Shown piece by piece: positions 13,183 through 63,967 of a stretch of DNA of 64,000 nucleotides; the first letter of the stretch is position 1, and every line of letters begins with the position of its first letter. Source of the DNA: a virus (taxonomy: Duplodnaviria; Caudoviricetes); IMG/VR virus record IMGVR_UViG_3300037312_000330, positions 184,885 through 248,884 of that record; one strand, written 5' to 3'. Position numbers and translations under genes: made by a program. The notes below the pieces were generated by a model. That model made no database searches and had not been told where the DNA came from. It saw only the letters and a list, made by a program, of their open reading frames with translations.

Positions 13183-13190
13183 TTTGATGT
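13180..13190 (+). promoter_or_regulatory. Class B motif TAATTTGATGT (candidate late promoter)
   Basis: ~34 nt upstream of the Ig-domain virion gene; the same 11-mer occurs upstream of the portal operon. Confidence 0.55.
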
Positions 13191-13223
13191 CATCAATCGG
13201 TAACCCTCTCTAGAGGACACAAA

Positions 13224-13901
13224 ATGGCAATCCTTTTCCGCACTACGTTCCTCCCGATTATTCGCTCTCTGACTAAGGAAGTTCTGGGCGGATATAACCT
13301 CGGAGGCTTCAAGGGATTCGTTGGAACAGAAACCACTTGGACGCTGCCTTCCGGCAAGACCATCAATATCCAAAAGTGGACAACCACTTCTCCAAACACT
13401 TCTGGACGTCTTGCACCGTGGGTAATGGCATCGGTAATCGATGAACCGACGTACAAGAATCAGTTCTACATGGGATATGCAGAGTGGCAGCCCGTGAGTG
13501 GAGTAATGGACAATACGCAGTGGAACTCTTCTGCCGGTTCTCCAAACGTTCAGCAGTACACTCAAGGTACTCTGCTTTCCACGTTCTCTGCTCAGGCGAC
13601 GCTGTCGCGTTCTCCAGTAAACAACGTAGCTCCGGTTCTCAGCGGTAGTACGACATCCGCATCCGGTCAAGCCACGTGCAACACTGGAACGTGGGTCGGC
13701 GGAACGATCGTCTACTCATATCAGTGGTATCTCGAATCTGGGGTTGGGACAGGTGTGTTCAATGCCGTGAACGGAGCCACCGCCTCTACATGGACGATCA
13801 CTGCCAGCAACACTGGAAAGAAGATGTATTGTGCTGTCAAGGCTACGGACAGTTCTGGCAGCACCGTTGCGAACAGCAACCAAGTAGCGATCACAGGTTA
13901 A
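13224..13901 (+). CDS. Probable virion structural protein with C-terminal Ig-like domain
   Basis: APVLSG...TCNTGTW...YSYQWY...GATASTWTITASNTGKKMYCAVKAT, a typical Ig-like repeat; Thr/Ser/Gly rich. Confidence 0.7.
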   Translation: MAILFRTTFLPIIRSLTKEVLGGYNLGGFKGFVGTETTWTLPSGKTINIQKWTTTSPNTSGRLAPWVMASVIDEPTYKNQFYMGYAEWQPVSGVMDNTQWNSSAGSPNVQQYTQGTLLSTFSAQATLSRSPVNNVAPVLSGSTTSASGQATCNTGTWVGGTIVYSYQWYLESGVGTGVFNAVNGATASTWTITASNTGKKMYCAVKATDSSGSTVANSNQVAITG

Positions 13902-13910
13902 TCTGGATAG

Positions 13911-13924
13911 TGTAAAGTAAGAAC
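13911..13924 (+). promoter_or_regulatory. Class A motif TGTAAAGTAAGAAC
   Basis: The same 14-mer occurs at 60303-60316; upstream of the dUTPase. Confidence 0.6.
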
Positions 13925-13944
13925 GTTAACAACTGAGGTAAAAC

Positions 13945-14676
13945 ATGGAAGAAAGTAAAGGAGTTCGCACACCGAACTATTGCATCGAGGAGATGCTGAA
14001 GATCCAGAACGAGCTCAACATCAAGTCCTACAATGTGGCGTGGCTCGAGAAGGGCGGAACTGAAGAATTCGACTATTCGATGGCGGCAGGTGATGAAGCG
14101 CACGAGTATGCACGGAGTCTGCCGTTCGAGTGGTGGAAGAAGAACGCCCCGGATCGTCAGAACCAAGTTACTGAGATCGTTGATGCGTGGCATTTCGTCA
14201 TGAGTCAATTGATCATCGATAACATGGGGAACATTGGACGTGCGTATGCCACAGCACGTGACTCCTACCTGAGTTGGCGTGGCGTAATCACAGAACCTCT
14301 GACAGAGAAGAAAGCGACGAAGCTGTTCGTGGCTGCCATCTATCTACGCGGTTCGCAATTCGCGTCTCCGTGCGACTACATGTCTGCTTTCTGGTCGTGG
14401 TGTGATGCAGCGAACGTGGATCTCGATCTGCTGTATGCTCGCTATATTGCCAAGGCCACACTGAACAAGTTCCGTGTGGAAAACGGCTACAAGGAAGGCA
14501 AGTACACCAAATCTTGGTGTATCGGCGACGAACGCGGCGAAGACAACTACTTCCTGTCGAAGTGGGTGGATCATCGTATCAGTATCGGACACACGCCTAC
14601 TGCTGATGATGTTTCCTTGTGGCTTCCTGAGATGTACGCTCAAGTACTTCGTGCAACTGCTCCGGCGACTTCCTAA
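13945..14676 (+). CDS. dut: Dimeric all-alpha dUTPase (dUTPase_2 family)
   Basis: DEAHE, FEWWKK, EIVDAWHF, YIAKATLNKFRVENGYKEGKY.K.W and GEDN. Confidence 0.85.
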   Translation: MEESKGVRTPNYCIEEMLKIQNELNIKSYNVAWLEKGGTEEFDYSMAAGDEAHEYARSLPFEWWKKNAPDRQNQVTEIVDAWHFVMSQLIIDNMGNIGRAYATARDSYLSWRGVITEPLTEKKATKLFVAAIYLRGSQFASPCDYMSAFWSWCDAANVDLDLLYARYIAKATLNKFRVENGYKEGKYTKSWCIGDERGEDNYFLSKWVDHRISIGHTPTADDVSLWLPEMYAQVLRATAPATS

Positions 14677-14688
14677 CAAAACCAAATC

Positions 14689-14716
14689 AAAAGGGCCCCT
14701 AGGGGCCCTTTCTTTT
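14689..14716. terminator. Bidirectional Rho-independent terminator between convergent blocks
   Basis: AAAAGGGCCCC-TA-GGGGCCCTTTCTTTT palindrome with A/T tracts on both sides. Confidence 0.85.
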
Positions 14717-14726
14717 ACTTATCCAC

Positions 14727-15416
14727 TTAGTAAACTTCTGCTCTTGTTATCTCAATAGTCGCTGTGCCGCCAACTACGTACACGCCGTGACCAAGTCCAG
14801 TTCCACCACCGAACACCAGACCGTCACGTCCAGTGTTATCGATCGCACCCTGGAATCCAGTAGGATTAGTCGCTTTAGATGAAGTCAGGATCGCAGTCCA
14901 GTTCTGGTCGAATCTGACGTTGAACGAGAATGGTCCGGCTGCGATTGGGGTCATCGTCGCAAACGAGGCATACCAACGATACGCCTCGTATTCACCTTGT
15001 GCAGTCCAGTTATCACCCTTCCGTTGGAAGTATGGTGTCATCATCGATGGGCCATTCGGTTCAGTAGTTGGCACTAGCTTGGCACCCGGAGAAAGTTTGA
15101 TGTTTCCTTCGTAGATGACACCGGTCTTTCCTGTGAGTGCCGATGAGGACTTCGTCAGATAGTGGAGACCATCTTGTGTTGGAACGTCAAATTCGAACCC
15201 GTTAGCAGTCTTGCGTATCGTTCCCATGTTGGGGGATTCGGTCAGACCGTTTATGACTGGACCGAATTGCCAGTTTGCCGGATCCAATGGGTCGACGCTT
15301 ACACCACCATCGGACAGACTATTACCACTTGAACCACTCTTGTTAGTGACAAGATAGACGACTATCCCTACCAGAGCTATGATGGCGACTATGTAGGTTG
15401 GATTTATGTTTGTCAT
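14727..15416 (-). CDS. Membrane-anchored beta-rich protein (hypothetical)
   Basis: N-terminal TM helix YIVAIIALVGIVVYLV, Ser/Gly linker, then an aromatic/Gly-rich domain (YFQRKGDNW, YRWY, FGGGTGLGHGVY). Confidence 0.65.
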   Translation of the reverse strand: MTNINPTYIVAIIALVGIVVYLVTNKSGSSGNSLSDGGVSVDPLDPANWQFGPVINGLTESPNMGTIRKTANGFEFDVPTQDGLHYLTKSSSALTGKTGVIYEGNIKLSPGAKLVPTTEPNGPSMMTPYFQRKGDNWTAQGEYEAYRWYASFATMTPIAAGPFSFNVRFDQNWTAILTSSKATNPTGFQGAIDNTGRDGLVFGGGTGLGHGVYVVGGTATIEITRAEVY

Positions 15417-51002: not shown

Positions 51003-52085
51003 ATGATGGGATTTCAATCTTCCAAATACGGCTCGGCTGAAGACCGAGTGCGATTGGTCCGAGAAGAGCTGAACACATTATCGGGTTCCAAACGGGACCT
51101 CGGAAACAAATACCAGATCTGCTGTCCGTATCATAATGACAGCAACCCTAGTGCGTTGGTTACATTGGACCCTCTAGAACAAAATGGTCCGATCGGGTGG
51201 ATGACCTGTTTAGGTTGTGGAAAGAGCGTGGGTTGGAATGATCTGGCTAGAACGCTGAACCTCAAGCTAATGGGAAAGCCCAAGACGCTGAAGGCAGAGC
51301 ACTTCTCTCGACCAAAAGAATTCAAAGACGAACTGCTGAAGAAAGGCAACAAGACCAACGGATCGTTCTCAGAACTGGAGGAACTACGTATCCAGGCGAA
51401 GTTCCCGTTCAAGGAATGGCGTGGTGTGGACGTCCAGCTACTGTATGCAGTCGGCGCACAGTACGTGCTGCACACTGGATGGAACAATATGCCATTCGTG
51501 TTCCTTCCTGTGTTGGTAAACCGGAAACTGCGTGGATACGTAAAAGCTAAGATAGAGAAGCCAACAGACGGCAAGCCGAGCTATCTGAATGCGAAGGCAG
51601 ACAACGGATTCAACTGGAGTCGTAGATGGGGTCTGATCTACTTCGACTACGCTGTGGAACTGATGAAGCAACGTGGTCTCAAGACGATGGTGTTGTGTGA
51701 AGGACCGCGAGATAGTCTGCGATATTTGGCCCAAGAGATCCCTGCCGTGTCTGTACTAGGAGCATTGAACTGGAGTGCTCATAAACGTGAGCTTCTGGAA
51801 GACGCTGGCGTTGAGAAGTTGATCTTGTCGTTCGATGGCGACGATGCTGGTATCAAAGCTACGAAGGTCGTCTACAAGGATGTAAGGCACAATTTCGATA
51901 CCAAGTATCTGGCCTTGTGGAAAGAACGCAGACCGCGCTGGGAGAACATTAAACCGAGCACCAAGCACGTAAGACAAGCGTTCAAAATGCAAGGAGACAA
52001 GAAGGTGCTTCTATGGGAAAACGAACTGGATCCGTTCAACATGCCGGAGCGCTTCGTGCGTGCAGTGGAAGAGGAGTTAGTGTGA
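51003..52085 (+). CDS. dnaG: DNA primase (CHC2 zinc finger + TOPRIM)
   Basis: CCPYHNDSNPSA...CLGCG; MVLCEGPRD; LSFDGDDAG. Confidence 0.9.
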   Translation: MMGFQSSKYGSAEDRVRLVREELNTLSGSKRDLGNKYQICCPYHNDSNPSALVTLDPLEQNGPIGWMTCLGCGKSVGWNDLARTLNLKLMGKPKTLKAEHFSRPKEFKDELLKKGNKTNGSFSELEELRIQAKFPFKEWRGVDVQLLYAVGAQYVLHTGWNNMPFVFLPVLVNRKLRGYVKAKIEKPTDGKPSYLNAKADNGFNWSRRWGLIYFDYAVELMKQRGLKTMVLCEGPRDSLRYLAQEIPAVSVLGALNWSAHKRELLEDAGVEKLILSFDGDDAGIKATKVVYKDVRHNFDTKYLALWKERRPRWENIKPSTKHVRQAFKMQGDKKVLLWENELDPFNMPERFVRAVEEELV

Positions 52086-52288: not shown

Positions 52289-52533
52289 AAGAACCTAAAT
52301 ATGCTGTATATCCTGGTCCGGTACGCAGCCGGACCGACGGCCAGGAACATCACATTGGCGCACGAGAGTTGATGTTTCTCTACGGCGTTGAACCGTCGGA
52401 TTGTCTCATAGTATGGCCTCACGAATACACAGATCCATCTGCTCGTTCCAGGATAGATAGGGCAGCCAAGCTGCCTGCCTTGTGTCCACGGTTTGATGGA
52501 GACTACAAGCTACCGGAGAAGAAAGAATGCTGA
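52285..52533 (+). CDS. Hypothetical phage protein
   Basis: ATGA coupling; YAVYPG.VRS..DG..H.IGA..L..LYGV. Confidence 0.55.
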   Translation: MKEPKYAVYPGPVRSRTDGQEHHIGARELMFLYGVEPSDCLIVWPHEYTDPSARSRIDRAAKLPALCPRFDGDYKLPEKKEC

Positions 52534-53369
52534 TATCACATAAGAATCGTTTCGTGTTCGTGCACAATCCAAAGGTGGCTGGCACGAGCTTTCGTAACAT
52601 GCTGTGCAAGAACTTCGAGTGTGAAGACCGACGCTTCAACGCTCGTGTGGACGGTGTGTGTCAGGATCAGGCACATCTGAGAGTAGATCAGTGGCCATCT
52701 AGCCTGTGGGATTTGTACATCCAAGGTTACTATTTCTTCGGAATGGTGCGTGATCCACGTGATCGCTTCCTGTCCAGTATGTCAGAGTTCTGGTATCAAC
52801 ATCAGGACATGGCTCAGCAACTTGGAACCACTCGCGAGAATCTGCTGCGCGTGATGCTGACGCCGAACAGCATCGCCTACGATGTTCGATTCATCCACTT
52901 CACAGAACAGTGGCGCTTCTTCGACTACGAGCCAGTAGGGGATTCTGATCAGAACCTGGACATAGATATTTTCAGGTTCGAAGATATGGAACATTGGGTG
53001 AATAGTCCGAATTTCAAGGACAAGCTGAAGTTCAATGGGCGACTAGAACTGCAAAACGATAGGCCATCCTATTATCGTGCTAAGGAATTCCCGGAGGAGC
53101 TGGAATCGATGATTCCATTCCTGTACAAGGAAGACTACGACATGTTCGGGTATGCACGAAAACTGCCGATGCAATTCCTGTGGCACACCCATAGTCACAG
53201 ACTGGAGTTCGTACATCGCTATCCTGAGATGGTAGACATTGGGAAGTTGAATCAGCGTGAGTACAATGCACTGCAACGCGAGAAACCAGTGATAGAGTCT
53301 CTGTCAAGGATGAGTCTTGCGGATTATGCTACGCGAACAACTATCATCCGTAGAACTGCAAATGTCTAA
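52527..53369 (+). CDS. PAPS-dependent sulfotransferase (Sulfotransfer_2-like)
   Basis: 5'-PSB loop FVHNPKVAGTSF, 3'-PB motif MVRDPRDRFLS, HFTEQ, IFRFEDM, LYKEDYDMFGY. Confidence 0.85.
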   Translation: MLISHKNRFVFVHNPKVAGTSFRNMLCKNFECEDRRFNARVDGVCQDQAHLRVDQWPSSLWDLYIQGYYFFGMVRDPRDRFLSSMSEFWYQHQDMAQQLGTTRENLLRVMLTPNSIAYDVRFIHFTEQWRFFDYEPVGDSDQNLDIDIFRFEDMEHWVNSPNFKDKLKFNGRLELQNDRPSYYRAKEFPEELESMIPFLYKEDYDMFGYARKLPMQFLWHTHSHRLEFVHRYPEMVDIGKLNQREYNALQREKPVIESLSRMSLADYATRTTIIRRTANV

Positions 53370-54315
53370 GACACATCTAGTCATATTCTCACGTGGACGA
53401 GTGGGTAACCAGAAGACGCTGTCTTATCTGCCATCCACTATTGTCAAGAACAATCTAACGTTCGTGTGCCCGAAGTCCGAAGTGGCAGAACACAAGAAGC
53501 ATGACTACAGCAAAGGACTGGACATTCTAGGATGGGAAGACGGAGTGCATCTGGCCGACAAACGGCTAGGTGTAGCCAAATGGCTGGACAATGAAGGAGT
53601 GAAGCAGTTCCTCTTTCTGGACGACGACCTCAAGCTAAGTGTGTGGTTGTCGGATGAGAAGAAGTTCCGCAGCACACGCAAACTTCACGACAATGGGACA
53701 GGTCCCGTAGATTACTATCTGTCGCAATACACTGACAGACTCTTCAAGGAATATGCTGGAGTTGGATACGGGTGTATGTCCATGCAGGCGCGTATGGAAG
53801 CCATCAAAGAGGGGAACTTCCAACAGGTGAACAAGAAGATGTGTTGCATCTTCGGATATAGAACCGAAGAGTTCTTGGCACGTATGGATCACCCCAAATT
53901 CGAGAAGATCTGGGGTATCGACACTGTGTGGAATCTTGAGACAATGGTCAAGACAGACGACATCGTTACTGACCATCACCTAGCCTGGACTACCGACTTC
54001 GCTGTGAACAACGGCGGTGCCTCAATCTATCGCAACAAGCCAGACGTACTGCACTCGTTTCTGCGCATGATGTTGCTGCATCCTGGATTGATAAGTCGAG
54101 GCAAGGACGGTGTGCATGTCCACTCTTTCCTACGCATTAGTTGGAAGGACATACCCAAGTATGGGACTTATTCTCTATCAGAGAAGGGTGCTAGAATCTT
54201 CTTCGATGAGTTGAAGCATCAGAAGACGAGCGTCAAAGAGTTTCTTAAGAAATGTCCAAAGGATTCAATGCCGTGGTACAGCAATCGAATAGAGAAACTT
54301 AAGTCGCTACTGTAA
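53362..54315 (+). CDS. TAGT/JGT-like DNA glycosyltransferase 1 (GT-A)
   Basis: VIFSRGR...KT, FVCPKSE, KR...W, FLFLDDD (DxD), D..W.L, NNGGAS..R. Confidence 0.7.
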   Translation: MSKTHLVIFSRGRVGNQKTLSYLPSTIVKNNLTFVCPKSEVAEHKKHDYSKGLDILGWEDGVHLADKRLGVAKWLDNEGVKQFLFLDDDLKLSVWLSDEKKFRSTRKLHDNGTGPVDYYLSQYTDRLFKEYAGVGYGCMSMQARMEAIKEGNFQQVNKKMCCIFGYRTEEFLARMDHPKFEKIWGIDTVWNLETMVKTDDIVTDHHLAWTTDFAVNNGGASIYRNKPDVLHSFLRMMLLHPGLISRGKDGVHVHSFLRISWKDIPKYGTYSLSEKGARIFFDELKHQKTSVKEFLKKCPKDSMPWYSNRIEKLKSLL

Positions 54316-54317
54316 AT
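54311..54317 (+). promoter_or_regulatory. Class A motif TGTAAAT
   Basis: Includes the upstream TAA; just before the RBS GGAGG of ORF 54329. Confidence 0.35.
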
Positions 54318-54328
54318 TGGAGGTAGAC

Positions 54329-54652
54329 ATGAGTTCCATACCGAGATTGCGTATTCTGCGAACCTATACTCACGAACTAGCACCCGGTACGCAGTTGATG
54401 ATCGGTGGTCACAACAGCTACGTGACACGAAACAATGATGTTCTCCAATACTACGACGATGAAGCGAGAGATTGGCTGGACATACCTGTAGTGGAGAAGA
54501 ACGATCGTCGCAGCCCAGCAGAGCGTTTGGAGGAAAAGCAACGTGAGGAACGGGCAGCCGCACGAGCCAACGATCCAGCATTCAAGAACGCGGTTCGGAT
54601 GATGAGAGAAGCTGTGGTGAAACAGACAGGAAAGACAAATGGCAAAGTATAA
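54329..54652 (+). CDS. Hypothetical protein
   Basis: GGAGG RBS. Confidence 0.6.
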   Translation: MSSIPRLRILRTYTHELAPGTQLMIGGHNSYVTRNNDVLQYYDDEARDWLDIPVVEKNDRRSPAERLEEKQREERAAARANDPAFKNAVRMMREAVVKQTGKTNGKV

Positions 54653-55505
54653 GGATGAGTGTGTAATCTACATCCCAACGTATCAACGGATTGACAAACA
54701 AGTAACGCTGCAACGCATACCGAAGAGTTCTGGTGTTGACGAAGGCAGGGTGGTACTAGTTGCTCCGAAGAATGAAGTCAAGAAGCTGGAACGTAAGTGG
54801 AACGTACCGGTGATTGCGCAGCCGGATGATATCAAGAACATAGCGCAGAAACGTGCATGGATCATCGAGCAGTGTCGGTATGAGCGCATGTTCATGTTGG
54901 ATGATGACCTGCGGTTCTGCTATCGTCCATCCTTCGGTGGCAAGAAGCTGATCACTGTAGAGAACACACATGAAGGTGCCAACCGTGCGTGGTTGAACGT
55001 AGAACGTGCGTTGGAGCACTTCGCTCATGTTGGCATAGGTGCTCGTATGGGTGCCCAAGAGAAAAGCTTCAGGTGGTCGATCAACAGTCGATGCATGTAC
55101 GTGCTTGGATATCAAACACGCATCATACAGAAGTGCAAGCTGGGATCCATTGACACTCGTGAGGACATGGACTACACTCTACAATTGTTCCAGCGAGGCT
55201 TCCGTAATCTGGTGAACTATCGTCTCTTGGTCGACCAGCAGTTCGCTAAGGCTGGCGGCATGACGGAAGAACGCACTGTCGAGAAGTCGGATAAGGATGC
55301 CATCCGATTGGCGAAGAGATATCCTGGATTCGTAGATGTGATCCAGAAAGCATACAAGCAAAGTGTGCCACGCAAGGAAGTGAGAGTAGCATGGCGTAAA
55401 GCGTTCAACAAGGAAGCAAGCTCCAAACAAGAACGGGAGCTGATGAGACGCCTACTCAACAAGTGGGATCTTGCAACCACCAGAAACCTGAACGAACTAC
55501 TATGA
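54639..55505 (+). CDS. TAGT/JGT-like DNA glycosyltransferase 2 (GT-A)
   Basis: IYIPTYQR...T, LVAPKNE, NIAQKRAWI, FMLDDDL, EDMDYTLQL..RG, AGGM...RT, LAKRYPG, VAWRKA. Confidence 0.8.
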   Translation: MAKYKDECVIYIPTYQRIDKQVTLQRIPKSSGVDEGRVVLVAPKNEVKKLERKWNVPVIAQPDDIKNIAQKRAWIIEQCRYERMFMLDDDLRFCYRPSFGGKKLITVENTHEGANRAWLNVERALEHFAHVGIGARMGAQEKSFRWSINSRCMYVLGYQTRIIQKCKLGSIDTREDMDYTLQLFQRGFRNLVNYRLLVDQQFAKAGGMTEERTVEKSDKDAIRLAKRYPGFVDVIQKAYKQSVPRKEVRVAWRKAFNKEASSKQERELMRRLLNKWDLATTRNLNELL

Positions 55506-57028
55506 ACCAAAGCGTACTCCTTATCTTGAGTGCTGACTACTGCAATCCTGAGTTGCAGTCCGAGTTCGGTGCCAAACTACCTGCCTGCATGGTCCCACTC
55601 GGACCGAAAGTGCTGCTCCAGCACCAAGTGGAGTCCGCGTTCGATAACATACCTGATCTGCGATGGATCTTTGTGGGGATGCCATCTATTGGGGACAGTA
55701 TTAGAGCAGACAGTTATGTCTACAAGAAATGGGGGAAACGGGTAAAGTTCGTTCCCATTGAAGGCAGCAACAGCATGACGGAGACGTTCAACGGTCTGTT
55801 GGGTGCTGCGGCAGCTTGGATTAAAGAAGATCTTGCAACGCCAATCTTCAAGGACGATGCATGGCGGGTGCACGTTCTGAACGGCGACACCTTGTTTACG
55901 AGCGGTTGGAATACGTTCGGGAAAGTGATGTCTCAAGAAGACATCCGCGTGTTCGCACGTTCCAAGGAACTGATCAAGAAGCCAGTGGAAGAACGTTTGG
56001 GTATTGAGTACGTGGGAAAGATGGCGTTCTACTTCTCCGTGCAGCAATATATGAATTTCCCACAACAATACTCGTACGAAAGTCTGGTGCAAGCGTTGAA
56101 CCCGGTCGTGATACCGGAGGAAGACTGGCTAGACTTCGGCCATATGACCACCTATTATCGTAGTCGTAGACGTCTTCTGGCAACGAGGGCTTTCAATAGC
56201 ATCAAGATCGGACACAACGGACACATATTCAAGTACGGAGAAACCCAAAAGATGAAGGCGGAGCTGGCTTGGTACATGAGCGCCCCACGTTCTGTATCTA
56301 TGTATGCACCGCAAGTGGATGCGTTAAGAAACGATGATTCCGGATACGCTATGGAGTATCTGCCATATCCGTCGTTGGCAGAACTACTCGTTCACGGCAA
56401 TCACACTAGATCGTTCTGGCAACATATCCAGGGACTGCTACGCGAGCTTCTGAATACGATGTCTAGGTGCGAAGCGCCGATGTATCAATGGGACGATCCG
56501 TTCATGCTGAACAAGACGATCGAGCGCGTTGGTAGCCTGCAGGAGTGCTATCAAGAAAGAGCATTCGAGATTGTGGACTGGCTCCGTACACAGAAACCGC
56601 CGCACCATGCATGTGCTGTGCACGGTGATTTGTGTTTCTCAAACATACTGTACGATCAGCGTTCTGACTCCATTAAGATCATCGATCCACGTGGCCCAGA
56701 CACGTTCGGAAACCAACTGTATGATCTAGCCAAGTTGTTCCATTCTACAGCAGGTGCTTATGACTTCGCCGTGGCTGACTTGGAAGCTGACGCAAACAAA
56801 GAAGCTATCATGGCGGATCTCAGTGAGTTCGTGTTGAATTACGCGAAACAACGCTGGAATGTCGATAAGCGGGTAATAGTTGGAATGACTGCGCTGCTGT
56901 TCTACAGCATGTTGCCGCTGCACGTTGATGACATGGAAAGATGCAAGCGTCTGCTGAACAGGGCAGAAGGTGCTTATCGCAACTGGAAGAACATCTATGG
57001 ACAAGATGCATCCAACACATCTAACTAG
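55502..57028 (+). CDS. Fusion of nucleotidyltransferase-like domain and APH/choline-kinase-like domain (sugar kinase, capsule-biosynthesis type)
   Basis: N-terminal LQSEFG.KLPACMVPLG...LNGDT; linker WLDFGH..TYYRSR...TRAFN; kinase VHGDLCFSNILYD, IIDPRG, YDLAKL.HS. Confidence 0.8.
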   Translation: MNQSVLLILSADYCNPELQSEFGAKLPACMVPLGPKVLLQHQVESAFDNIPDLRWIFVGMPSIGDSIRADSYVYKKWGKRVKFVPIEGSNSMTETFNGLLGAAAAWIKEDLATPIFKDDAWRVHVLNGDTLFTSGWNTFGKVMSQEDIRVFARSKELIKKPVEERLGIEYVGKMAFYFSVQQYMNFPQQYSYESLVQALNPVVIPEEDWLDFGHMTTYYRSRRRLLATRAFNSIKIGHNGHIFKYGETQKMKAELAWYMSAPRSVSMYAPQVDALRNDDSGYAMEYLPYPSLAELLVHGNHTRSFWQHIQGLLRELLNTMSRCEAPMYQWDDPFMLNKTIERVGSLQECYQERAFEIVDWLRTQKPPHHACAVHGDLCFSNILYDQRSDSIKIIDPRGPDTFGNQLYDLAKLFHSTAGAYDFAVADLEADANKEAIMADLSEFVLNYAKQRWNVDKRVIVGMTALLFYSMLPLHVDDMERCKRLLNRAEGAYRNWKNIYGQDASNTSN

Positions 57029-57314
57029 CATCGTTCCTAACGAGAAGCTAGGTCAAGAGATCATGGCTCTGCGTTATGATCTAGTGGACAAGGTGTTGGT
57101 GGGGATGTTGCAAGAATGCCAGCGCCAAGCACACAACGACAGCAGGTCTGGTCGGTTCAAACTGGCGCGTGCACTACACAGACTTTCTCACACATTAAAC
57201 GGATGTTTGCTGGACATGTCGTCAGTAACAGAAGTGTGCCATAAGTTCATTGAACAAGAGAAGGCTGTACAAGAAGGACAAGGATCTGATCAAGGAACTG
57301 ACGCGGTCACGTGA
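57006..57314 (+). CDS. Hypothetical helical protein
   Basis: ORF in operon. Confidence 0.5.
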   Translation: MHPTHLTSIVPNEKLGQEIMALRYDLVDKVLVGMLQECQRQAHNDSRSGRFKLARALHRLSHTLNGCLLDMSSVTEVCHKFIEQEKAVQEGQGSDQGTDAVT

Positions 57315-57426
57315 GAAGTTTCTTGTTGTTGGTGCACCAAAATGATCTGGGATATCGTCTGCTGCGTGTCATACGTAGTAATAGCAGCGTTCTTGATTTG
57401 GGGTTGTGTTAAGAAGGACAAAGATC

Positions 57427-58218
57427 ATGATGATAACAGTGTTGCTGATGGCAGCGGGTGCTGGAACACGGATGTTGTCCGATGTGCCGAAGCCGTTCAT
57501 CAAAGTGGGTCAAACACAGATGTGGGAGCTAGTAGCCAAAAAGCTCGGGCTACACAAGAAGAGGGAAGTGGCGAAGTATCTGATTGTGCAGGATCAGCAC
57601 AAACAATATCTGCTGATGGATAGCGAATCAGAGAAGTACGTGGATACAGCTATTGCCATTACGGACATGACGAGTAAAGGTCCGGCGTGGTCAGTAGCAG
57701 CGGCAACCATGAGCATGAGTAGTGACCAGAGTATTTTGATTCTGGACTCCGACTGCTGGGTGGAAGTGCCCCCAAACGCGCCAGCCTACATGCAACACAA
57801 TGCTGCGCTATTAGGGTCGACAGAGATCGAACAGATACTTAGGATGCGTCCTGCTTGGGGAACGGATATCATGCTGTTCGGAGTCCGCGTCTTTGAAGAC
57901 ACGCCCAATGCGTCAGAGATTGTTCTGAATGTCAAATCTGATCCGCTGGGTCGTGTTGAAGCAATCAGAGAAGGCGGTGTGAAAAATGGTGGCATCCTGA
58001 ATGTCGGTGCGTATTGGTTCCGAAGCGTAGGTGATTTCCGAGCACGCCTAGCCAAGTGCACTTCGCAAACGGAAGTCAAGATCAGCGACGTGGTGAACGT
58101 GCGAGCGTGGCCGTCTGACGTGATGGTGCTGAACGGAGAATTCCGCAATCTTGGCACACGTGAGTTGCTTGATGCGTATCTAAAGGATAGCGATGACAAA
58201 ACAACAGACACTGTTTGA
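57427..58218 (+). CDS. Sugar-phosphate nucleotidyltransferase (NTP_transferase family)
   Basis: LLMAAGAGTRM...PKPFIKV, ILDSD, VGAYWF, LGT. Confidence 0.85.
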   Translation: MMITVLLMAAGAGTRMLSDVPKPFIKVGQTQMWELVAKKLGLHKKREVAKYLIVQDQHKQYLLMDSESEKYVDTAIAITDMTSKGPAWSVAAATMSMSSDQSILILDSDCWVEVPPNAPAYMQHNAALLGSTEIEQILRMRPAWGTDIMLFGVRVFEDTPNASEIVLNVKSDPLGRVEAIREGGVKNGGILNVGAYWFRSVGDFRARLAKCTSQTEVKISDVVNVRAWPSDVMVLNGEFRNLGTRELLDAYLKDSDDKTTDTV

Positions 58219-59164
58219 TGACAGTGAGAACTATCTGTTTAGACCAGAACAACAAAACGAACTGGATTCCATTGTCAAGTTCTGGATCGAGAGACACAAG
58301 ATCTATCTGCGGCGCAACGTTCTAAAGAAGGAGAAGCCGTGGACAAAGGATCCGATGCTTCTCAACTATCGCTTCTGCAACATCTATCGTGAGATCGATA
58401 CAGTGTCCGAATGGATCATCGACAACGTGATACACAAGTACGAGAAGAACGACAATCTGTGGTTCATGTTGGCTGCCAGTCGTCTGATCAATTGGCCTGA
58501 CACGTTGGCCGAAATGATTAAGGAACGAGCGTGGCCCATCGAACTCTATTCAGCAACCAAGCTGTATCGGGTACTTTCAGAGCGTGCTGAACGCAAAGAG
58601 AAGGTGATCACTGGAGCATACATCGTAAACTCCGTGTTCCCTAATGGGGTAAAGCCACCAGACACTAGAAAGGTCTACTACATACCGTACTTCGGGCTAC
58701 AAGGATTGTGGCAGAAGCGCGACGTGCTGCAGAAAGCCGCGAAGACCAGCATGGAATCGTTCGTCACTGAGATGACGAAATGCCACGGTTGGGGAGCTTT
58801 CATGGCCTATCAAGTGGCAGTAGATCTGAGCTACAGTAAGAAGTGGCTTGGCAATGCACCAGACGTCCACACGTACACAAGTCCGGGTCCTGGAACTACA
58901 CGCGGGATGGCGCGTCTGATGACAGGTGGTAAGAAGGCCGAACTTAGGGGGAAAGCTCTAAACAAGTACATGATCAAGCTCCGAGAGAAGATGAACGAAC
59001 GTGGTAAGGAGCTGATCAACCCAAAGTGGTGGACTGGGGACTTCAAGACAGGGTTTGCGGAACTAAGTATGCCGAATGTCAGTAATTGTTGCTGCGAATT
59101 CGATAAATACTGTCGTCTCATCGGTGGTGAAGGTGAACCACGCTCACGTTATCCCGGATCCTGA
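58193..59164 (+). CDS. aGPT-Pplase1-family 5-hmdU DNA hypermodification enzyme
   Basis: FWIERHKIY...KPWTKDPML.NYRFCNIYRE.D, SRLINW, GAY, G.GAFMAYQ..VDL, PGPGT.RG, CCEFDKY.R...GEG.PR. Confidence 0.85.
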   Translation: MTKQQTLFDDSENYLFRPEQQNELDSIVKFWIERHKIYLRRNVLKKEKPWTKDPMLLNYRFCNIYREIDTVSEWIIDNVIHKYEKNDNLWFMLAASRLINWPDTLAEMIKERAWPIELYSATKLYRVLSERAERKEKVITGAYIVNSVFPNGVKPPDTRKVYYIPYFGLQGLWQKRDVLQKAAKTSMESFVTEMTKCHGWGAFMAYQVAVDLSYSKKWLGNAPDVHTYTSPGPGTTRGMARLMTGGKKAELRGKALNKYMIKLREKMNERGKELINPKWWTGDFKTGFAELSMPNVSNCCCEFDKYCRLIGGEGEPRSRYPGS

Positions 59165-60014
59165 GTCCTTCCTAGGCACAAATGCACCTAGACTATTCGT
59201 ACGTAACATAGTAAAAGATCTGGACTTCTCCATTGCTGGAATATACGTCTGGATCTTCGACAGGCGGTATGCGTATGTCGGAAGTGCTAAGAATCTCTCA
59301 AAGAGACTGCGTCAACATTGCAGATTGATTGTTGGCAGAACGCGATCCATAAACACTAGTCGCAAGCACTCCAGGGTAGCTAAGAAATATGCAGACAGTG
59401 CAGAACTCTTCATTCTTGAGAACGGAGATTTCGACATGGCAGAGGCTTATAGCCTAGAGCGTGAATGGATCGCCTTCTTCCACAGACACGCGCCGGAAGG
59501 TCTGCTGCTTAACGATCACATGCTTCCAGGCGGTGGCCTGTCTAACAAGAGAGCCATGCAGAAGCGTTGGACGTCAGACGCACGCAAAGTGCGTAGTGAC
59601 TTCATGAAGAAGCAAGTCAGGCACCAATGGAAGAACCCAGAGTTCATTGAGATAAACAGAGAACGAATGCGGAAGCTTCGAGCTACTGGATGGATACCTG
59701 CCAAGGTGCAAATCGTAGACGTGACAACCCCGTTAGGCGACACTTACACATTGCGAGCCAAATCTCTACGACAGATCTTTATGACGAGCACCGATAACAT
59801 GGCCCATGTGAGAGTGTTCAAGTCACCAATGTTAGTTGGTTGGAGACTAGGGAACTTACGTGAAGCTTCAGGCAAAACTATTCCACATACACACGAGGAT
59901 GAATTCAAAAGAGACCCGTGTGTCAAAGCTATCGTGGGACTACGCACCACGAATGTGAAGTTATTTGCATTACGTGAGACATCGGCATCGCTATTGCGAC
60001 CGGTATACTCATAG
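59133..60014 (+). mobile_element. Free-standing GIY-YIG homing endonuclease gene
   Basis: AGIYVW...YAYVGSAKNLSKRLRQH...ILE...LEREWI; start uncertain (GTG 59124-59133 or ATG 59076). Confidence 0.8.
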
Positions 60015-60031
60015 ATAGCAGGAGACAATCT

Positions 60032-60298
60032 ATGGCAAAACGCGAATCACATCTGGTACGTTACTTCTTGAACCTGTACGAAGATCGAGACAGGGCAGAA
60101 CTCACCAAGCTTGTCACAAAGCTAGACCACGAGGCAAATCGGTTGAAGTGGCTTCAAAGCAAAGCTGCCCAAACACCGAACGAGGACGGATACGAATGGG
60201 GTGTGTTTCGCGTAAAGCGGGACGAAAGTGGGAAGGTAATAGATGTAGAAAGGTGTAACCCTGAATACATCGATCTTGATGAAGCAATGAAGAGCTGA
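60032..60298 (+). CDS. Hypothetical protein
   Basis: AGGAG RBS. Confidence 0.6.
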   Translation: MAKRESHLVRYFLNLYEDRDRAELTKLVTKLDHEANRLKWLQSKAAQTPNEDGYEWGVFRVKRDESGKVIDVERCNPEYIDLDEAMKS

Positions 60299-60302
60299 AC
60301 AC

Positions 60303-60316
60303 TGTAAAGTAAGAAC
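60303..60316 (+). promoter_or_regulatory. Class A motif TGTAAAGTAAGAAC directly abutting the ATG
   Basis: Same 14-mer as 13911-13924; no SD sequence, so possibly a leaderless transcript. Confidence 0.6.
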
Positions 60317-60847
60317 ATGAAAACTGTAATCACTCTAGTGGGGTTGCCCGGTTCAGGTAAGACAACTCTTGGTGACATGATCCACAAGTTGATCGGAGGC
60401 TCACGCGTAAATGCCGATCAAGTGCGCGAGACCATTAGCTGCGACCTGAAGTTCACGCAAGGAAACCGTGAAATCCAGGCGTATCGAATGGGCGCATTGG
60501 CCGCACTCTCCCTATTCGAGCCTGTTCAGATCATGTCTGACACACCGATGGGCACGTTGAATCAGACTGCCATCGTAGATTTCGTGTGCCCTACACAACG
60601 CACGCGAGATGTGTACGATTGGGCGATCAGGTCGCAATTGCCATTCCCGGTGCGCAGGTTCACGATCTGGATGGACACAATCACGCCGTCTCAGTGTCGA
60701 TTCGAGGATACGGCCAAGTTGTTCCAAGAGCCGAGTGGTGCGGACATCATCGTACATGGATACAAGACAAAGGAAGAATTGACTAGGATGGCAGAATCCA
60801 TTGCTTACGAGATTCGGCCGGACAAATTTGGAATCAGGAAGGCATAA
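60317..60847 (+). CDS. Adenylyl-sulfate (APS) kinase-like P-loop kinase
   Basis: LVGLPGSGKTT, VNADQVR...DLKFT..NR..QA.RM, IVDFVCPT..TR, IWMDT, RFEDT.K.FQEP. Confidence 0.75.
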   Translation: MKTVITLVGLPGSGKTTLGDMIHKLIGGSRVNADQVRETISCDLKFTQGNREIQAYRMGALAALSLFEPVQIMSDTPMGTLNQTAIVDFVCPTQRTRDVYDWAIRSQLPFPVRRFTIWMDTITPSQCRFEDTAKLFQEPSGADIIVHGYKTKEELTRMAESIAYEIRPDKFGIRKA

Positions 60848-60848
60848 C

Positions 60849-62117
60849 ATGAAAGTAATCAAGGGTTGCAACACAGTCGATCGTGGACTCCAAGCGATTC
60901 TGACAGAGCTCAATAAGCCCGGCAATCATGTGGACACACAGAGCCGAAACGGTCCGGTGCGTCGATTCAAGGGTCCAGTTGCCATCATGTGGACGAGACC
61001 TCAGTTCCGGGTTTCCTTCGATCCAATCCGGGATGCTAATCCGGCGTTCCACTTGTTTGAAGCACTGTGGATGCTGAGCGGAGAGAACGATGTCAAGCGT
61101 CCTGCATACTTCGCCAGTCAGATGGGGCAATTCTCTGATGACGGAGAGACATTCCATGGTGCGTATGGTCACCGTTGGGTAAAGCACTTTGGCATCGACC
61201 AAATTCGCGAGTATGTGATTCCTGCGTTGAGAAAGAACAAGGAAGACAGACGCGTGGTACTGCAGATGTGGGATGGTGATGTGGACACGAAGCAAGGTCT
61301 GAATCCTAAAAGCCGTGACGTTCCGTGTAACCTGACAGCCACATTCGACGCCAGTCAAGGCGATGGCCGTCTTCATATGACGGTATTCAATCGTAGCAAC
61401 GACATTGTGTGGGGTGCGACAGGTGCCAACATCGTTCACTTCTCGATCCTGCACGAGTACGTGGCAAGCGCGCTTGGTATTGGAATTGGTACATACGAAC
61501 AGATCTCCACGAATAGTCACCTGTACTTGGAGCTAAACGAAGCGAGCAAGAAGGTGCTAGCGGCACATGCTGCCAATCCTGATCGTGAGACCATGTACGC
61601 TGGACGCCTGAGCTTCCTGCGTGATCCAGAAGCGTATCCAGAGCAAGACCCTGAAACGTGGCAAACGATGTTCGATCAGGATATTCAGACATTGATGAAT
61701 TGCTACAACAAAGTAGCAAATTGCACCTTCAAGACTCAGTTCTTCCAGCGTGTTGTGGCACCAGTGATCAACGCGTTCAATCTGTACAAGAACGATGACG
61801 GTCTGGAAGATGCGATGCGTCTTCTGATGAGATGCGTGGTGCAGAACGAACAGGAACCGTGGTGGTCTTGGCACGACTGGAATGTGGCTACTTTCCAGTG
61901 GATGCAACGACGAGTGCAGCAGCGTAATGACAAACTTGCGGATTGTCTGAACGCCACTGACATCGAATCCTTTGAAGCAAGCGTGCGTAAGGTGTGGAAG
62001 AAAGTACGCCGAATTGGCAACGACTTCGTCATAGATGATGCCAAACATCCGGTTAAAGCCTCCTTCGAACCACTAAGGAAGTATGTAATGTATCGTGGTC
62101 TTACACCGGCCAACTAA
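60849..62117 (+). CDS. Thymidylate-synthase homolog, dUMP hydroxymethylase type
   Basis: SRNG, RDANP.FHL.EALWML.G, FSDDG..F.GAYG.RW, RR.VLQMW, catalytic DVPCN, RSNDIVWGATGAN (Asn = uracil specificity), SHLY. Confidence 0.85.
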   Translation: MKVIKGCNTVDRGLQAILTELNKPGNHVDTQSRNGPVRRFKGPVAIMWTRPQFRVSFDPIRDANPAFHLFEALWMLSGENDVKRPAYFASQMGQFSDDGETFHGAYGHRWVKHFGIDQIREYVIPALRKNKEDRRVVLQMWDGDVDTKQGLNPKSRDVPCNLTATFDASQGDGRLHMTVFNRSNDIVWGATGANIVHFSILHEYVASALGIGIGTYEQISTNSHLYLELNEASKKVLAAHAANPDRETMYAGRLSFLRDPEAYPEQDPETWQTMFDQDIQTLMNCYNKVANCTFKTQFFQRVVAPVINAFNLYKNDDGLEDAMRLLMRCVVQNEQEPWWSWHDWNVATFQWMQRRVQQRNDKLADCLNATDIESFEASVRKVWKKVRRIGNDFVIDDAKHPVKASFEPLRKYVMYRGLTPAN

Positions 62118-62125
62118 AGGAAAAT

Positions 62126-62845
62126 ATGGAAGAAACAACTGGAATTACGGTGGGTCTCGTGGAACCACCAGAGTACATCAAAGCTGAAGACTACGCAACG
62201 CACACGAACGGACTGCCGAAGACAAACTTCGACCAGATGCGTGAGATGTCCCACAGGATTGTGGACGTGTTCGTTCAGCGGCCAAACAGCGAGATCCCTG
62301 TTGGCGGCACGGAAATTGGAAAATTTCTGTGCAGCGAGTCAGAAGATCTAGAAGCTGCGTTGGGGAAGGTGAACTTCAACGCGTTTGCGGCGGTTGATCT
62401 AGTGAACGTGCCAAGAGAGAAGACCCTCTACATGCGTATGTGTGAGATGGTGCTGGATCTGGCAATCGTCTATCTGATACGGATGCGTATCCGTCAGTTC
62501 GACATGCCGATGGAGCTGGGACATTCAGCTACAACATGGATTCCCAAGATCCCTAGCGACGATGAGATCAAGGCGTTGTTCACGTCGCTATCTGAACTGG
62601 CCCGTCAGAAGGACGCAGAGTACGGAGCTAGCTGGTGCAAGCGCGGCGGCATCGGCGCTTGGTTCACCACTGTGCGTAAGTTCGACCGTCTGGTGACGCA
62701 GCTTCTGAAGAAGGACTACAACATCTGGGATGTATCTGATGATGTGAACTCTACGGAATGCCTCGAAGAGACCATCAAGGATGCTATCAACTATTTGCTG
62801 CTGATACTGGAGAAGCGGCAAACGATTCAAAATATCGGGAGCTAA
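62126..62845 (+). CDS. Nucleotide-modification-associated domain (Nmad1/DUF1599-like, MazG-like all-alpha)
   Basis: C-terminal QKDAEYGASWCKRGG.G......RK.DRL...E.LEETIKDAINYLLL. Confidence 0.75.
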   Translation: MEETTGITVGLVEPPEYIKAEDYATHTNGLPKTNFDQMREMSHRIVDVFVQRPNSEIPVGGTEIGKFLCSESEDLEAALGKVNFNAFAAVDLVNVPREKTLYMRMCEMVLDLAIVYLIRMRIRQFDMPMELGHSATTWIPKIPSDDEIKALFTSLSELARQKDAEYGASWCKRGGIGAWFTTVRKFDRLVTQLLKKDYNIWDVSDDVNSTECLEETIKDAINYLLLILEKRQTIQNIGS

Positions 62846-62847: not shown

Positions 62848-63351
62848 ATGCTAATTCTAGTAGCCATCTGGAAAGCGGTCACGGGATTCTTCTCCAGTGT
62901 ATGTAAGTTCCTTGTGGAACACCCGTTGGTTCTTGGCGCTCTTGTTGTATTCGCAGTAGGAATGCTAGCAGGTGGTTGGCTAGAGGGAAAGCAGATGGAA
63001 TCGAAGTACGAGCCTGTCATCCAAGCGTTCCAGAAGGACGCGCAGGCTCGTGAGCTTAAGATCAAACAGATAGAAGCGGATACTCAACAAGCGGCCGCAG
63101 AAGCCAGGACAGTGATCCAAGCTAAGGACAGTCTGATCGACGCGGTTAGCAAGTCCTACGAAGAGAGGATCGCTGCAATGAAGAAGAACCCACAGATAAA
63201 GACTGTCATCGTTCCTGGAGCCAAGGAAACAGTGTACGTCAACCAAGCTGGAGAGGTGAGTTGCAGGAGGTTCCCACAAGAATTCACTGACACAGTGAAT
63301 GAGATGGTAGACAAAGCAAACGGTGATGTCCAGAAAGGAAAAGCACCATGA
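62848..63351 (+). CDS. Inner-membrane spanin (Rz-like)
   Basis: N-terminal TM helix then coiled coil; directly followed by an overlapping lipoprotein gene. Confidence 0.7.
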   Translation: MLILVAIWKAVTGFFSSVCKFLVEHPLVLGALVVFAVGMLAGGWLEGKQMESKYEPVIQAFQKDAQARELKIKQIEADTQQAAAEARTVIQAKDSLIDAVSKSYEERIAAMKKNPQIKTVIVPGAKETVYVNQAGEVSCRRFPQEFTDTVNEMVDKANGDVQKGKAP

Positions 63352-63632
63352 AGAAGTCACGTTTTGCAGGGTCCTTCGGGGCCCTTTTTATGGTCTGCGC
63401 TCTTTGTGGGTGTGGAACAGTGCAGCCACCGGCAGTTCCATCGTCTTCCAACACTGTTAACTTCGACAAGGGGCTGTTGGAAGACTGCAAGAAACTCCCA
63501 CATCTGAAGTCGAGCACAGACGTAGACGTCAACGCATGGATAGCCTCTGTCACTGAGATACACATTGAGTGTGCAGAAACGAAGCGCAAAGAGAACGAAC
63601 AGATCAAGAAAGCCTTGAACATTGTACCATGA
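63348..63632 (+). CDS. Outer-membrane spanin lipoprotein (Rz1-like)
   Basis: Lipobox LCGC, Pro-rich linker, two further Cys (LLEDC..LP; HIECA). Confidence 0.7.
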   Translation: MKKSRFAGSFGALFMVCALCGCGTVQPPAVPSSSNTVNFDKGLLEDCKKLPHLKSSTDVDVNAWIASVTEIHIECAETKRKENEQIKKALNIVP

Positions 63633-63967
63633 GTGGGACGATGAACGAGAAGACCCGCAAGCAGTTGGAGGAGATCCGACAAATGCTGGGAGAACGATCC
63701 GTAACCGATAAGCCTTATTGGCAACAAGACCCGATATACACGGGCAGTCTTACTATTAATAATACGATTAGTGCGACTAGCACTACCGTCACATACGTCA
63801 ACTACAACGACGCAATCACCAGCACCAACTTCATACCTATGGGATGGAAAGAAGCTGAGTCTCAGGACGTGTCGGTACGAATCGAGAAGGCCAAGAAGAA
63901 GCGTATTGCCAATGAGAAGGAGATCAAGCGACTGACTATGGGACCGAAAGCGAGTAGGTGGCGATGA
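63629..63967 (+). CDS. Hypothetical protein
   Basis: ATGA coupling to the o-spanin stop. Confidence 0.55.
   Translation: MSGTMNEKTRKQLEEIRQMLGERSVTDKPYWQQDPIYTGSLTINNTISATSTTVTYVNYNDAITSTNFIPMGWKEAESQDVSVRIEKAKKKRIANEKEIKRLTMGPKASRWR

Follow-up and report, generated by a model that had tools for sequence, protein, structure and literature searches.

The stretch of DNA examined here (the window) is the final 64 kb of an IMG/VR virus record of 248,884 bp, which is rated 100% complete and comes from rhizosphere metagenomes. Downstream of a DNA primase gene and two small open reading frames (ORFs), 13 co-oriented genes on the plus strand form a cluster at 52527-62845 (Table 1). The cluster is a candidate pathway of thymidine hypermodification, in which 5-hydroxymethyluracil (hmU) of the phage DNA would be glycosylated and sulfated.

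Table 1 Genes of the cluster and of its upstream edge, with coordinates in the window.
Feature	Position	Strand	Matches and remarks
DNA primase (Zn-ribbon + Toprim)	51003..52085	+	Pfam Toprim_2 2e-8, weak Zn_ribbon_DnaG; 64% identical to L007 primase
Small conserved phage ORF, 82 aa	52285..52533	+	phrog_7644 9e-17; 7-nt overlap with sulfotransferase start
PAPS-dependent sulfotransferase (predicted), Sulfotransfer_2, 280 aa	52527..53369	+	Pfam 4e-9, phrog_3347 1e-17
TAGT-type glycosyltransferase 1, 317 aa	53362..54315	+	Pfam TAGT 28.9 bits (cut-off 27.5), phrog_842 7e-22
Small ORF, 111 aa	54317..54652	+	No significant family match; L003 also has a small ORF between its TAGT genes
TAGT-type glycosyltransferase 2, 288 aa	54639..55505	+	Pfam TAGT 1e-21 (78.0 bits, cut-off 27.5), phrog_842 6e-45
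Fusion of nucleotidyltransferase-like N-half and APH-type kinase C-half, 508 aa	55502..57028	+	Pfam APH, phrog_24015 2e-72
Small ORF, ~105-114 aa	56970..57314	+	43% identical to L011 ORF; no family match
Second nucleotidyltransferase, 263 aa, GlmU/IspD-like N-terminal fold	57427..58218	+	Pfam NTP_transferase 6e-6, weak NCBIfam GlmU/IspD
aGPT-Pplase clade 1 / HMUDK_hel, 323 aa	58193..59164	+	Pfam PF18723, E 1e-44
GIY-YIG homing-endonuclease-like gene	59076..60014	+	Pfam GIY-YIG 1e-6, TIGR01453 1e-6
Small conserved ORF, 88 aa, between aGPT-Pplase1 and kinase	60032..60298	+	72% identical to L011 ORF
APS-kinase-like P-loop kinase, 176 aa	60317..60847	+	Pfam APS_kinase (PF01583) 27.9 bits (cut-off 21.1)
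Thymidylate-synthase-family enzyme, ~422 aa	60849..62117	+	Pfam Thymidylat_synt 4e-17, phrog_5131 1e-100
Conserved accessory protein, 239 aa, possibly DUF1599/Nmad1-like	62126..62845	+	Match to phiRSL1 ORF229; last gene of cluster

An earlier note on this DNA had described a co-oriented and tightly packed run of modification genes behind the primase. The genes that it named are present; most of their families are matched by profiles, and the junctions are from -26 to +18 nt, except for two stretches holding small or inserted ORFs. The named sulfotransferase, two TAGT glycosyltransferases, nucleotidyltransferase-kinase fusion, second nucleotidyltransferase, aGPT-Pplase1 protein (HMUDK_hel in Pfam, the family being labelled aGPT-Pplase1 in GenBank) and protein resembling adenosine 5′-phosphosulfate (APS) kinase were all recovered. 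The list had overlooked the GIY-YIG gene and the small ORFs of 111, ~105-114 and 88 aa. The run is not random, as the same set recurs in phiRSL1, a cultured Ralstonia phage, and in at least 10 IMG/VR contigs. The primase is the upstream edge of the module and lies outside the modification set.

The thymidylate synthase (TS) homologue has its catalytic Cys in VPCNL. The dUMP-type hydroxymethylase motif pointed out in the earlier note, FNRSNDIVWGATGAN, is present with Asn at the position discriminating uracil from cytosine, that is, Asn (uracil) rather than Asp (cytosine) in RSNDIVWGATGAN (RSND..GAN). The best phage matches are the M6-like (44% identity), phiRSL1 (40%), SPO1 gp29 (36%) and ViI-like/Cba120 (34-36%) enzymes, as compared with 28% (E = 3e-6) for the T4-type td gene. 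On sequence identity it groups with the hydroxymethylases of hmU phages, not with true thymidylate synthases, and it is read as a putative dUMP hydroxymethylase. The genome has no ThyX, no second TS-family gene and no Tet_JBP match. With Tet_JBP absent from a complete genome, the predicted hydroxymethyl group would come from the TS homologue instead, and the TAGT enzymes are not associated with TET/JBP.

No other gene of the cluster is as well conserved as that of aGPT-Pplase1, the product of which is 46% identical to phiRSL1 ORF231, 36% to M6 gp55 and 80-81% to the copies of two IMG/VR relatives (L007 and L011; L numbers denote IMG/VR loci). Its isoelectric point (pI) is 9.4, and it presumably binds hmU-DNA. 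The published M6 pathway requires 5-HMUDK and the clade-2 aGPT-Pplase, now named amino-acid:DNA transferase, while the clade-1 protein gp55 was dispensable in its in vitro reconstitution (PMC8989533). Neither required enzyme is found here: 5-HMUDK (PF18748) and amino-acid:DNA transferase (PF18724) have no match in the genome at E <= 1, and there is no homologue of M6 gp54 or gp51. Because this canonical kinase/transferase route is absent, the conserved clade-1 protein must have a role independent of it. The APS-kinase-like protein was considered as the missing 5-hydroxymethyl-dU DNA kinase and rejected: it has no BLAST match to M6 gp54, hhalign aligned just the P-loop (23 columns), and gp54 belongs to PF18748, which the window kinase does not match.

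The last gene of the cluster had been labelled Nmad1, a name that its sequence does not bear out. The 239-aa protein has no Pfam or DUF1599 (PF07659) hidden Markov model (HMM) match at E <= 1, and no DUF1599 match occurs in the genome at E <= 10; what links it to DUF1599 clusters is an Atlas language-model feature score of 0.91 with 195 shared features. The protein is conserved, with its C-terminal 86 aa 49% identical to phiRSL1 ORF229 and 37-61% identity to the copies in L007, L009 and L011.

The two TAGT (PF20691) glycosyltransferases are the only copies in the genome. TAGT 1, the start of which overlaps the sulfotransferase stop by 8 nt, is the more variable paralogue (33% identity with phiRSL1 ORF233 and 68% with its L003 counterpart; pI 9.2). 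TAGT 2 is the more conserved (74-75% identity with its counterparts in L003 and L007, and 31-34% with phiRSL1 ORF234/237; pI 9.8). Both match phrog_842, which is named after the T-even beta-glucosyl-HMC-alpha-glucosyltransferase. Across the loci, TAGT proteins (pI 9.2-9.9) and aGPT-Pplase1 proteins (pI 8.9-9.8) are uniformly basic, as expected of DNA-acting enzymes.

Two further genes may supply the sugar. In the fusion protein, the APH domain covers residues 263-427 (numbered from the translation of the ORF starting at 55463). Its N-half has no Pfam match, and the Atlas model of this half resembles nucleotidyltransferases with template modelling scores (TM) of 0.71-0.76, including bacterial nucleotidyltransferase-APH fusions. 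The fusion is 32% identical to phiRSL1 ORF236, and the kinase is free-standing in L009 and L011. The fusion is presumed to activate a sugar, first to the sugar-1-phosphate and then to a nucleoside diphosphate (NDP)-sugar. The second nucleotidyltransferase shows 24% identity with phiRSL1 ORF235 and 48% with its L011 counterpart. The APH kinase gene and the nucleotidyltransferase pair are found in some loci only, and a UDP-galactopyranose mutase gene (GLF) occurs in L009 and L020 and epimerase genes in L009, suggesting that the sugar varies between phages.

The sulfotransferase matches Sulfotransfer_2 (PF03567) with 37.3 bits (cut-off 22), its residues 2-210 aligning to profile positions 4-252 of 252. 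It contains PKVAGTS at residues 15-21 and RDPRDRFLSS at residues 75-84, which we take to be the 5′-phosphosulfate-binding and 3′-phosphate-binding motifs (PKxxGT/S and RDPxxRxxS) of sulfotransferases that use 3′-phosphoadenosine 5′-phosphosulfate (PAPS). Among 44 homologues there is no variation at P15, K16, H50, P77 or S83, and conservation reaches at least 90% at R75 and R80. The PAPS-binding motifs are kept in all eight cluster-linked copies.

The AlphaFold model of the sulfotransferase has a mean confidence (pLDDT) of 94. The nearest solved fold is heparan sulfate (HS) 2-O-sulfotransferase (Z = 10.8, root-mean-square deviation of 3.5 Å over 176 residues), and the best 25 PDB representatives in VIA-align are all sulfotransferases. 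Against the Swiss-Prot part of the AlphaFold database (AFDB), the best 22 matches are all carbohydrate sulfotransferases, CHST8-14. A Foldseek search of the PDB gave E > 0.1 only. Single-sequence phmmer searches of the PDB told little about the sulfotransferase or the fusion protein and gave weak matches for the kinase. Judged by its motifs and predicted fold, the sulfotransferase is intact and of the PAPS type, and its closest relatives act on sugars. It shares the fold and the PAPS-binding motifs with its nearest structural neighbours, animal CHST8-14 and HS 2-O-sulfotransferase, but it is 13-18% identical to them, lacks a membrane anchor, has an extra C-terminal helical region (residues ~214-280) and is found in a different biological context.

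The APS-kinase-like protein is the presumed source of PAPS. When a profile of 30 members of its family was searched, solved APS kinases were top-scoring (E = 1e-17 to 1e-9), and the alignment spans GLPGSGKT, (N/D)xDxxR, DLxF...R and F(V/I)xP. The window protein itself has GLPGSGKT, DxxR, DLKF..R and F-V-C-P. With Walker A, LDGDxxR, DLxFS..R and ISP(Y/H) as the motif set of APS kinases, we take DxxR, DLxF..R and F(V/I)xP of the family to be the APS-binding positions. The model (pLDDT 90.5) has APS kinases as all of its best 47 Foldseek matches in the PDB (TM 0.58-0.70), above gluconate kinase. The protein is 37% identical to phiRSL1 ORF238.

All nine enzyme families of the cluster have orthologues in phiRSL1 ORF229-238 (NC_010811.2), with 24-49% identity and BLASTP E values of 4e-10 to 2e-101, in a rearranged order. 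phiRSL1 is a jumbo phage of the same broad group, and its cluster also lies near the primase gene. It differs in having three TAGT genes rather than two, in lacking the GIY-YIG insertion and in its sulfotransferase, which is of a different clade (22-26% identical to that of the window).

Relatives in IMG/VR were collected via kinase and via sulfotransferase searches. A single-sequence scan gave no match, and an alignment-based scan with the sulfotransferase profile succeeded, finding 52 loci, 13 of which are near relatives. In 10 of these 13, genes for the sulfotransferase, APS-kinase-like protein, TS homologue, aGPT-Pplase1 and TAGT lie within 10 kb. The co-occurrence of sulfotransferase and hydroxymethylase genes in related phages, which the earlier note had proposed to check, thus holds for phiRSL1 and for these 10. 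The sulfotransferase gene directly adjoins a TAGT gene in 9/14 loci. Farther away in the family, phage sulfotransferase genes are likewise accompanied by APS-kinase-like genes (L033, L038, L042, L044 and L050).

The sulfotransferase has a history of its own within this set. In pairwise comparisons of the window, L007 and L011, aGPT-Pplase1 is 78-81%, the TS homologue 59-76% and the kinase 63-75% identical, and the sulfotransferase just 24-30%. The three sulfotransferases belong to three different clades, each matching its own glycosyltransferase architecture. The clade of L007, L022, L024 and phiRSL1 goes with three or more TAGT genes, and that of L009, L011 and L026 with one 310-aa TAGT-like enzyme, to which a GT-B-like enzyme is added in L009 and L011. 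Further clades are L017, L025 and L045, and the window with L003, L004 and L016. Over 12 loci, the identity matrix of the sulfotransferase is uncorrelated with that of aGPT-Pplase1 (rho = -0.14) or the TS homologue (rho = -0.02), while that of the APS-kinase-like protein follows the TS homologue (rho = 0.47, Mantel p = 0.003). The sulfotransferase thus follows the glycosyltransferase set and not the hmU core, which fits a constant donor, PAPS, with a variable sugar acceptor, and speaks against the hydroxymethyl group, which is invariant, as the site of sulfation.

The most elaborate version of the cluster was seen in L022 (IMG/VR 3300020599_000003, 2752-14985), which has two tandem sulfotransferase genes, five TAGT-like genes and genes for the kinase, nucleotidyltransferase, aGPT-Pplase1 and TS homologue. 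This gene content suggests a larger, doubly sulfated glycan.

Because the sulfotransferase follows the glycosyltransferase set and its fold neighbours are carbohydrate sulfotransferases, a sulfated sugar on hmU is the best reading of the cluster. We put the probability at roughly 0.55 that this is a phiRSL1-type thymidine hypermodification pathway with such a product in the phage DNA. The functional proposal of the earlier note stands to that extent: hmU formation with TAGT glycosylation and PAPS-dependent sulfation is the best-supported explanation, and the amino-modified hmU that it also entertained is unsupported, PF18748 and PF18724 being absent. What the analysis shows directly is the families to which the proteins belong, their intact motifs and predicted folds, the conserved association of the genes and the way in which they are inherited together.

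In the pathway as we picture it, the TS homologue would convert dUMP to 5-hydroxymethyl-dUMP, which would be phosphorylated and then polymerised into DNA, replacing thymidine in part or in full. A free sugar would become an NDP-sugar through the action of the APH-type kinase and both nucleotidyltransferase domains, and the basic TAGT enzymes would then link one sugar, or two, to the hydroxymethyl group in DNA. The APS-kinase-like enzyme would make PAPS from host APS, with which the Sulfotransfer_2 enzyme would O-sulfate the sugar, either once it is on DNA or earlier, at the stage of the nucleotide sugar. The aGPT-Pplase1/HMUDK_hel and DUF1599-like proteins may be conserved accessory factors on hmU-DNA.

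Several points weigh against this pathway, some of them favoring other explanations. The chemistry of each step, the kind of sugar, the site of the sulfate and the degree to which thymidine is replaced are what we infer from the genes. On the donor side, the kinase scores 21.7 bits with the NCBIfam equivalog TIGR00455, far below the cut-off of 138.7. The first Asp of LDGD is replaced by an invariant Asn (NAD) in the family, and the serine position of ISP is Cys in the window kinase and Ser in no aligned member. The kinase family also occurs in Xylella and Stenotrophomonas siphophages without a sulfotransferase. No PAPS_reduct/CysD match was found in the phage, Sat-type ATP sulfurylase not having been searched for; lacking a CysD-type enzyme of phage origin, the pathway must take APS from the host. 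Many relatives of Pseudomonas, Burkholderia and Ralstonia assimilate sulfate via APS reductase and need little PAPS. If the host here is of this kind, that would explain why the phage carries an APS kinase.

These features of the kinase leave room for a donor that is an analogue of PAPS. In the Campylobacter O-methyl-phosphoramidate pathway, the APS-kinase homologue Cj1415 acts on CDP-amidate. By analogy, the kinase might 3′-phosphorylate a phage-made NDP-X, and the enzyme with the sulfotransferase fold might move a non-sulfate, phospho-type group to the sugar. The kinases form a distinct subfamily (with the invariant Asn, scores below equivalog cut-offs and some fusions to HIGH-motif nucleotidyltransferases), as such a role would allow, and the nucleotidyltransferase-APH fusion resembles bacterial capsule and O-antigen enzymes, including Campylobacterota capsular proteins. 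The missing phage ATP sulfurylase (CysD-type, the one searched for) points the same way. We nevertheless consider an analogue very improbable. L017, L025, L026, L045 and partly L016 keep the sulfotransferase and APS-kinase-like genes without the APH kinase or the nucleotidyltransferase pair within 10 kb, so that the donor appears independent of those genes. Moreover, the kinase profile alignment retains the Arg/Phe/Arg positions read as APS-contacting, and the sulfotransferase fits the Sulfotransfer_2 profile end to end.

The siphophage copies of the kinase, 29-31% identical to that of the window, were seen in the 56-kb Xylella phages Sano, Salvo and Bacata and Stenotrophomonas phages Suzuki and Bhz60, where they adjoin COG3236 / GTP-cyclohydrolase-II-like or ‘riboflavin biosynthesis’ genes; a search of phage records found no match to the window sulfotransferase in these phages. 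Some family members (P0030, P0031, P0033 and P0056) have a fused C-terminal domain with GRYQPxHxGH, which looks like a HIGH-type nucleotidyltransferase. The fusions hint that parts of the kinase family may serve other nucleotide pathways.

A sulfated sugar also gives no explained role to aGPT-Pplase1, the most conserved gene. Such a role would exist if sulfate were a leaving group. In that case the 5-hydroxymethyl group itself would be sulfated to 5-sulfooxymethyluracil, comparable to 5-phosphomethyl-dU, and aGPT-Pplase1/HMUDK_hel would displace the sulfate with a nucleophile, which would make sulfate an intermediate rather than the end decoration. Canonical systems have the kinase adjoining or fused to the HMUDK_hel domain; here 5-HMUDK and amino-acid:DNA transferase are absent and the HMUDK_hel partner is kept. 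The genes for sulfotransferase, APS-kinase-like protein, aGPT-Pplase1, TS homologue and TAGT form the invariant core, with the sugar kinase and nucleotidyltransferase being optional. This mechanism seems improbable to us, however, because hmU is constant in all these phages and yet the sulfotransferase is the least conserved gene, swapping with the glycosyltransferase set and showing no correlation with aGPT-Pplase1 in identity. Its fold neighbours are carbohydrate O-sulfotransferases, and, in spite of the action on DNA that this mechanism demands of it, the enzyme is not basic. In addition, TAGT enzymes require a free hydroxyl rather than an activated one, and clade-1 aGPT-Pplase proteins have no demonstrated transferase activity. 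The argument from co-inheritance has a weakness of its own: aGPT-Pplase1 and the TS homologue are also poorly correlated (rho = 0.10), so that the histories of the core genes are partly discordant and the whole block is mosaic.

Two other observations against a sulfated sugar on DNA concern the target. First, the sulfotransferase has a pI of 6.0-7.8 in all 12 copies, unlike basic DNA-acting proteins, which hints at sulfation of the nucleotide sugar before transfer or at a non-DNA target. Second, a distantly related jumbo phage, G001 (IMG/VR 3300029993_000005; L020 and L068-L079), which is 230 kb long, 97% complete and shares 63 ORFs at ~33% identity, has a sulfotransferase gene but no TS-family, aGPT-Pplase1, TAGT or APS-kinase-like gene anywhere in its genome. 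At ~103-113 kb its primase gene is followed by unannotated 431-aa and 341-aa genes, GLF, the sulfotransferase and a DUF1599-like gene. A sulfotransferase can thus exist without hmU.

The sulfotransferase, the APS-kinase-like enzyme and part or all of the sugar genes could accordingly make a sulfated glycoconjugate on the host envelope, serving superinfection exclusion, or on a virion protein or a small molecule, with the hmU genes as mere neighbours. The earlier note had named a non-DNA target as its alternative, and G001, which keeps the sulfotransferase without a hydroxymethylase, leaves it standing as a rival. GLF, sulfotransferase and a GT1-type enzyme also occur together in L005, with no hmU gene on its 6 kb, and among the 39 more distant phage relatives of the sulfotransferase, most lack hmU genes within 10 kb. 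Fold neighbours of the sulfotransferase work on glycoprotein and proteoglycan glycans. We still think a non-DNA target unlikely, as the sulfotransferase gene is inside the block and translationally coupled to a TAGT gene, between the primase upstream and aGPT-Pplase1 and the hydroxymethylase downstream, and this linkage survives rearrangements in phiRSL1 and 10 IMG/VR loci. TAGT is a family of DNA-base glycosyltransferases, in agreement with the T-even name of phrog_842. Hydropathy gives neither a membrane span nor a signal peptide for any protein of the cluster, among the genes of which none for a lipid carrier or for export was seen.

The locus belongs to a conserved and previously predicted type of thymidine hypermodification. 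The earlier note had presented the system as a candidate new one, but as an idea it is not new, since the phiRSL1 cluster has been annotated with sulfotransferase and APS kinase since its deposition. In its passage on the subject, a 2024 article (PMC10829341) credits Iyer et al. 2013 (NAR 41:7635) with reporting phage systems of glycosylation and sulfation, and, going by that passage, the phiRSL1 cluster is apparently the kind of system that was reported there computationally. The idea has therefore been published as a computational prediction. Our literature search found no experimental test of this prediction and, in full text, no paper reporting a sulfated DNA base. A jumbo-phage review by the group of Iyer et al. 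does not discuss the cluster.

Known hypermodification pathways share parts of the set. With M6, ViI, PaMx11, SP10 and PhiW-14 (Lee et al. 2022, PMC8989533), the cluster has in common the dUMP hydroxymethylase (44% to M6 gp58) and the clade-1 aGPT-Pplase/HMUDK_hel protein, those phages modifying hmU post-replicatively in DNA. They use 5-HMUDK and amino-acid:DNA transferase and then pyridoxal phosphate (PLP), radical S-adenosylmethionine (SAM) or flavin adenine dinucleotide (FAD) enzymes, none of which is present in the window phage; in place of the kinase/transferase route, it has glycosyltransferases, sugar activation and sulfation genes. With T-even glucosyl-hydroxymethylcytosine, base J (JGT) and the phage 5mYOX/TET pathways (bioRxiv 10.1101/2023.12.21.572611; PMC8256090), it shares a GT-A-type TAGT predicted to act on 5-hydroxymethylpyrimidine and accessory sugar enzymes such as APH phosphotransferases and epimerases. 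In the window phage, hmU is predicted to be made before replication by the TS homologue and not by a dioxygenase. These two surveys of phage DNA glycosylation and T-dioxygenases do not mention sulfation. SP-15 and Carin-5 are alike in having bulky anionic sugar-bearing thymidines, with nucleotidyltransferase and glycosyltransferase genes near replication genes, but they owe their negative charge to phosphate and uronic acids borne by a dihydroxypentyl linker, and no sulfotransferase or APS kinase has been reported for them (PMC12686479).

The primase places the phage among the jumbo phages BcepSauron, phiRSL1, Motura and NCTB (31-34% identity). A megablast search with the region found no match among 50,697 phage records, that is, no close phage record at the DNA level. 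In the ORF at 63569-63967, the last 49 codons (window 63820-63967) are repeated at 98% identity at bases 2-148 of the genome, indicating that the ends of the record overlap by ~150 bp, whether because the assembly was closed into a circle or because the genome is terminally redundant.

Immediately 3′ of the cluster lies a spanin pair, which is kept in L007, L009 and L011: an Rz-like spanin gene with an N-terminal membrane segment (62848-63351, plus strand) and an overlapping lipoprotein gene with an LCGC lipobox (63348-63632, plus strand). The block thus ends at 62845. The longest ORF of the GIY-YIG gene, a group-I-intron-type endonuclease, overlaps the 3′ end of aGPT-Pplase1 by 89 nt. As the gene is missing from this position in L007, L009 and L011, it looks like a free-standing homing endonuclease insertion outside the pathway. 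An ORF of 79-89 aa occupies the position of the 88-aa ORF in L007, L008 and L011. Promoter and terminator scans gave counts equal to the shuffled expectation and are uninformative on operon structure. In L009/L010, a 220-kb relative, an Acb1-family gene (anti-CBASS nuclease in Pfam; 13447-14007, minus strand) lies ~1.5 kb downstream of the cluster, as does an Asp/Arg hydroxylase-like gene, placing a counter-defence gene near the DNA-modification block.

Beyond a single locus, a clade of jumbo phages from the rhizosphere and the cultured phage phiRSL1 have kept the gene set, and the sulfotransferase is inherited with the glycosyltransferase set, pointing to a sugar acceptor. We would give about even odds to the full proposal for this clade and phiRSL1, namely that their virion DNA contains O-sulfated glycosyl-5-hydroxymethyluracil, the first sulfate ester on a nucleic-acid base, made with phage-made PAPS by a sulfotransferase-glycosyltransferase cassette that is swapped between lineages and varies the sulfated glycan. 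The likely benefit, by analogy with other base modifications that are bulky or charged, would be the shielding of phage DNA from restriction and other nucleases. If the proposal is true, sulfation would join the chemistry of natural DNA, with a PAPS-dependent enzyme for sugars that are linked to or destined for DNA, and the resulting strongly anionic decoration might bear on restriction, CRISPR, packaging and sequencing.

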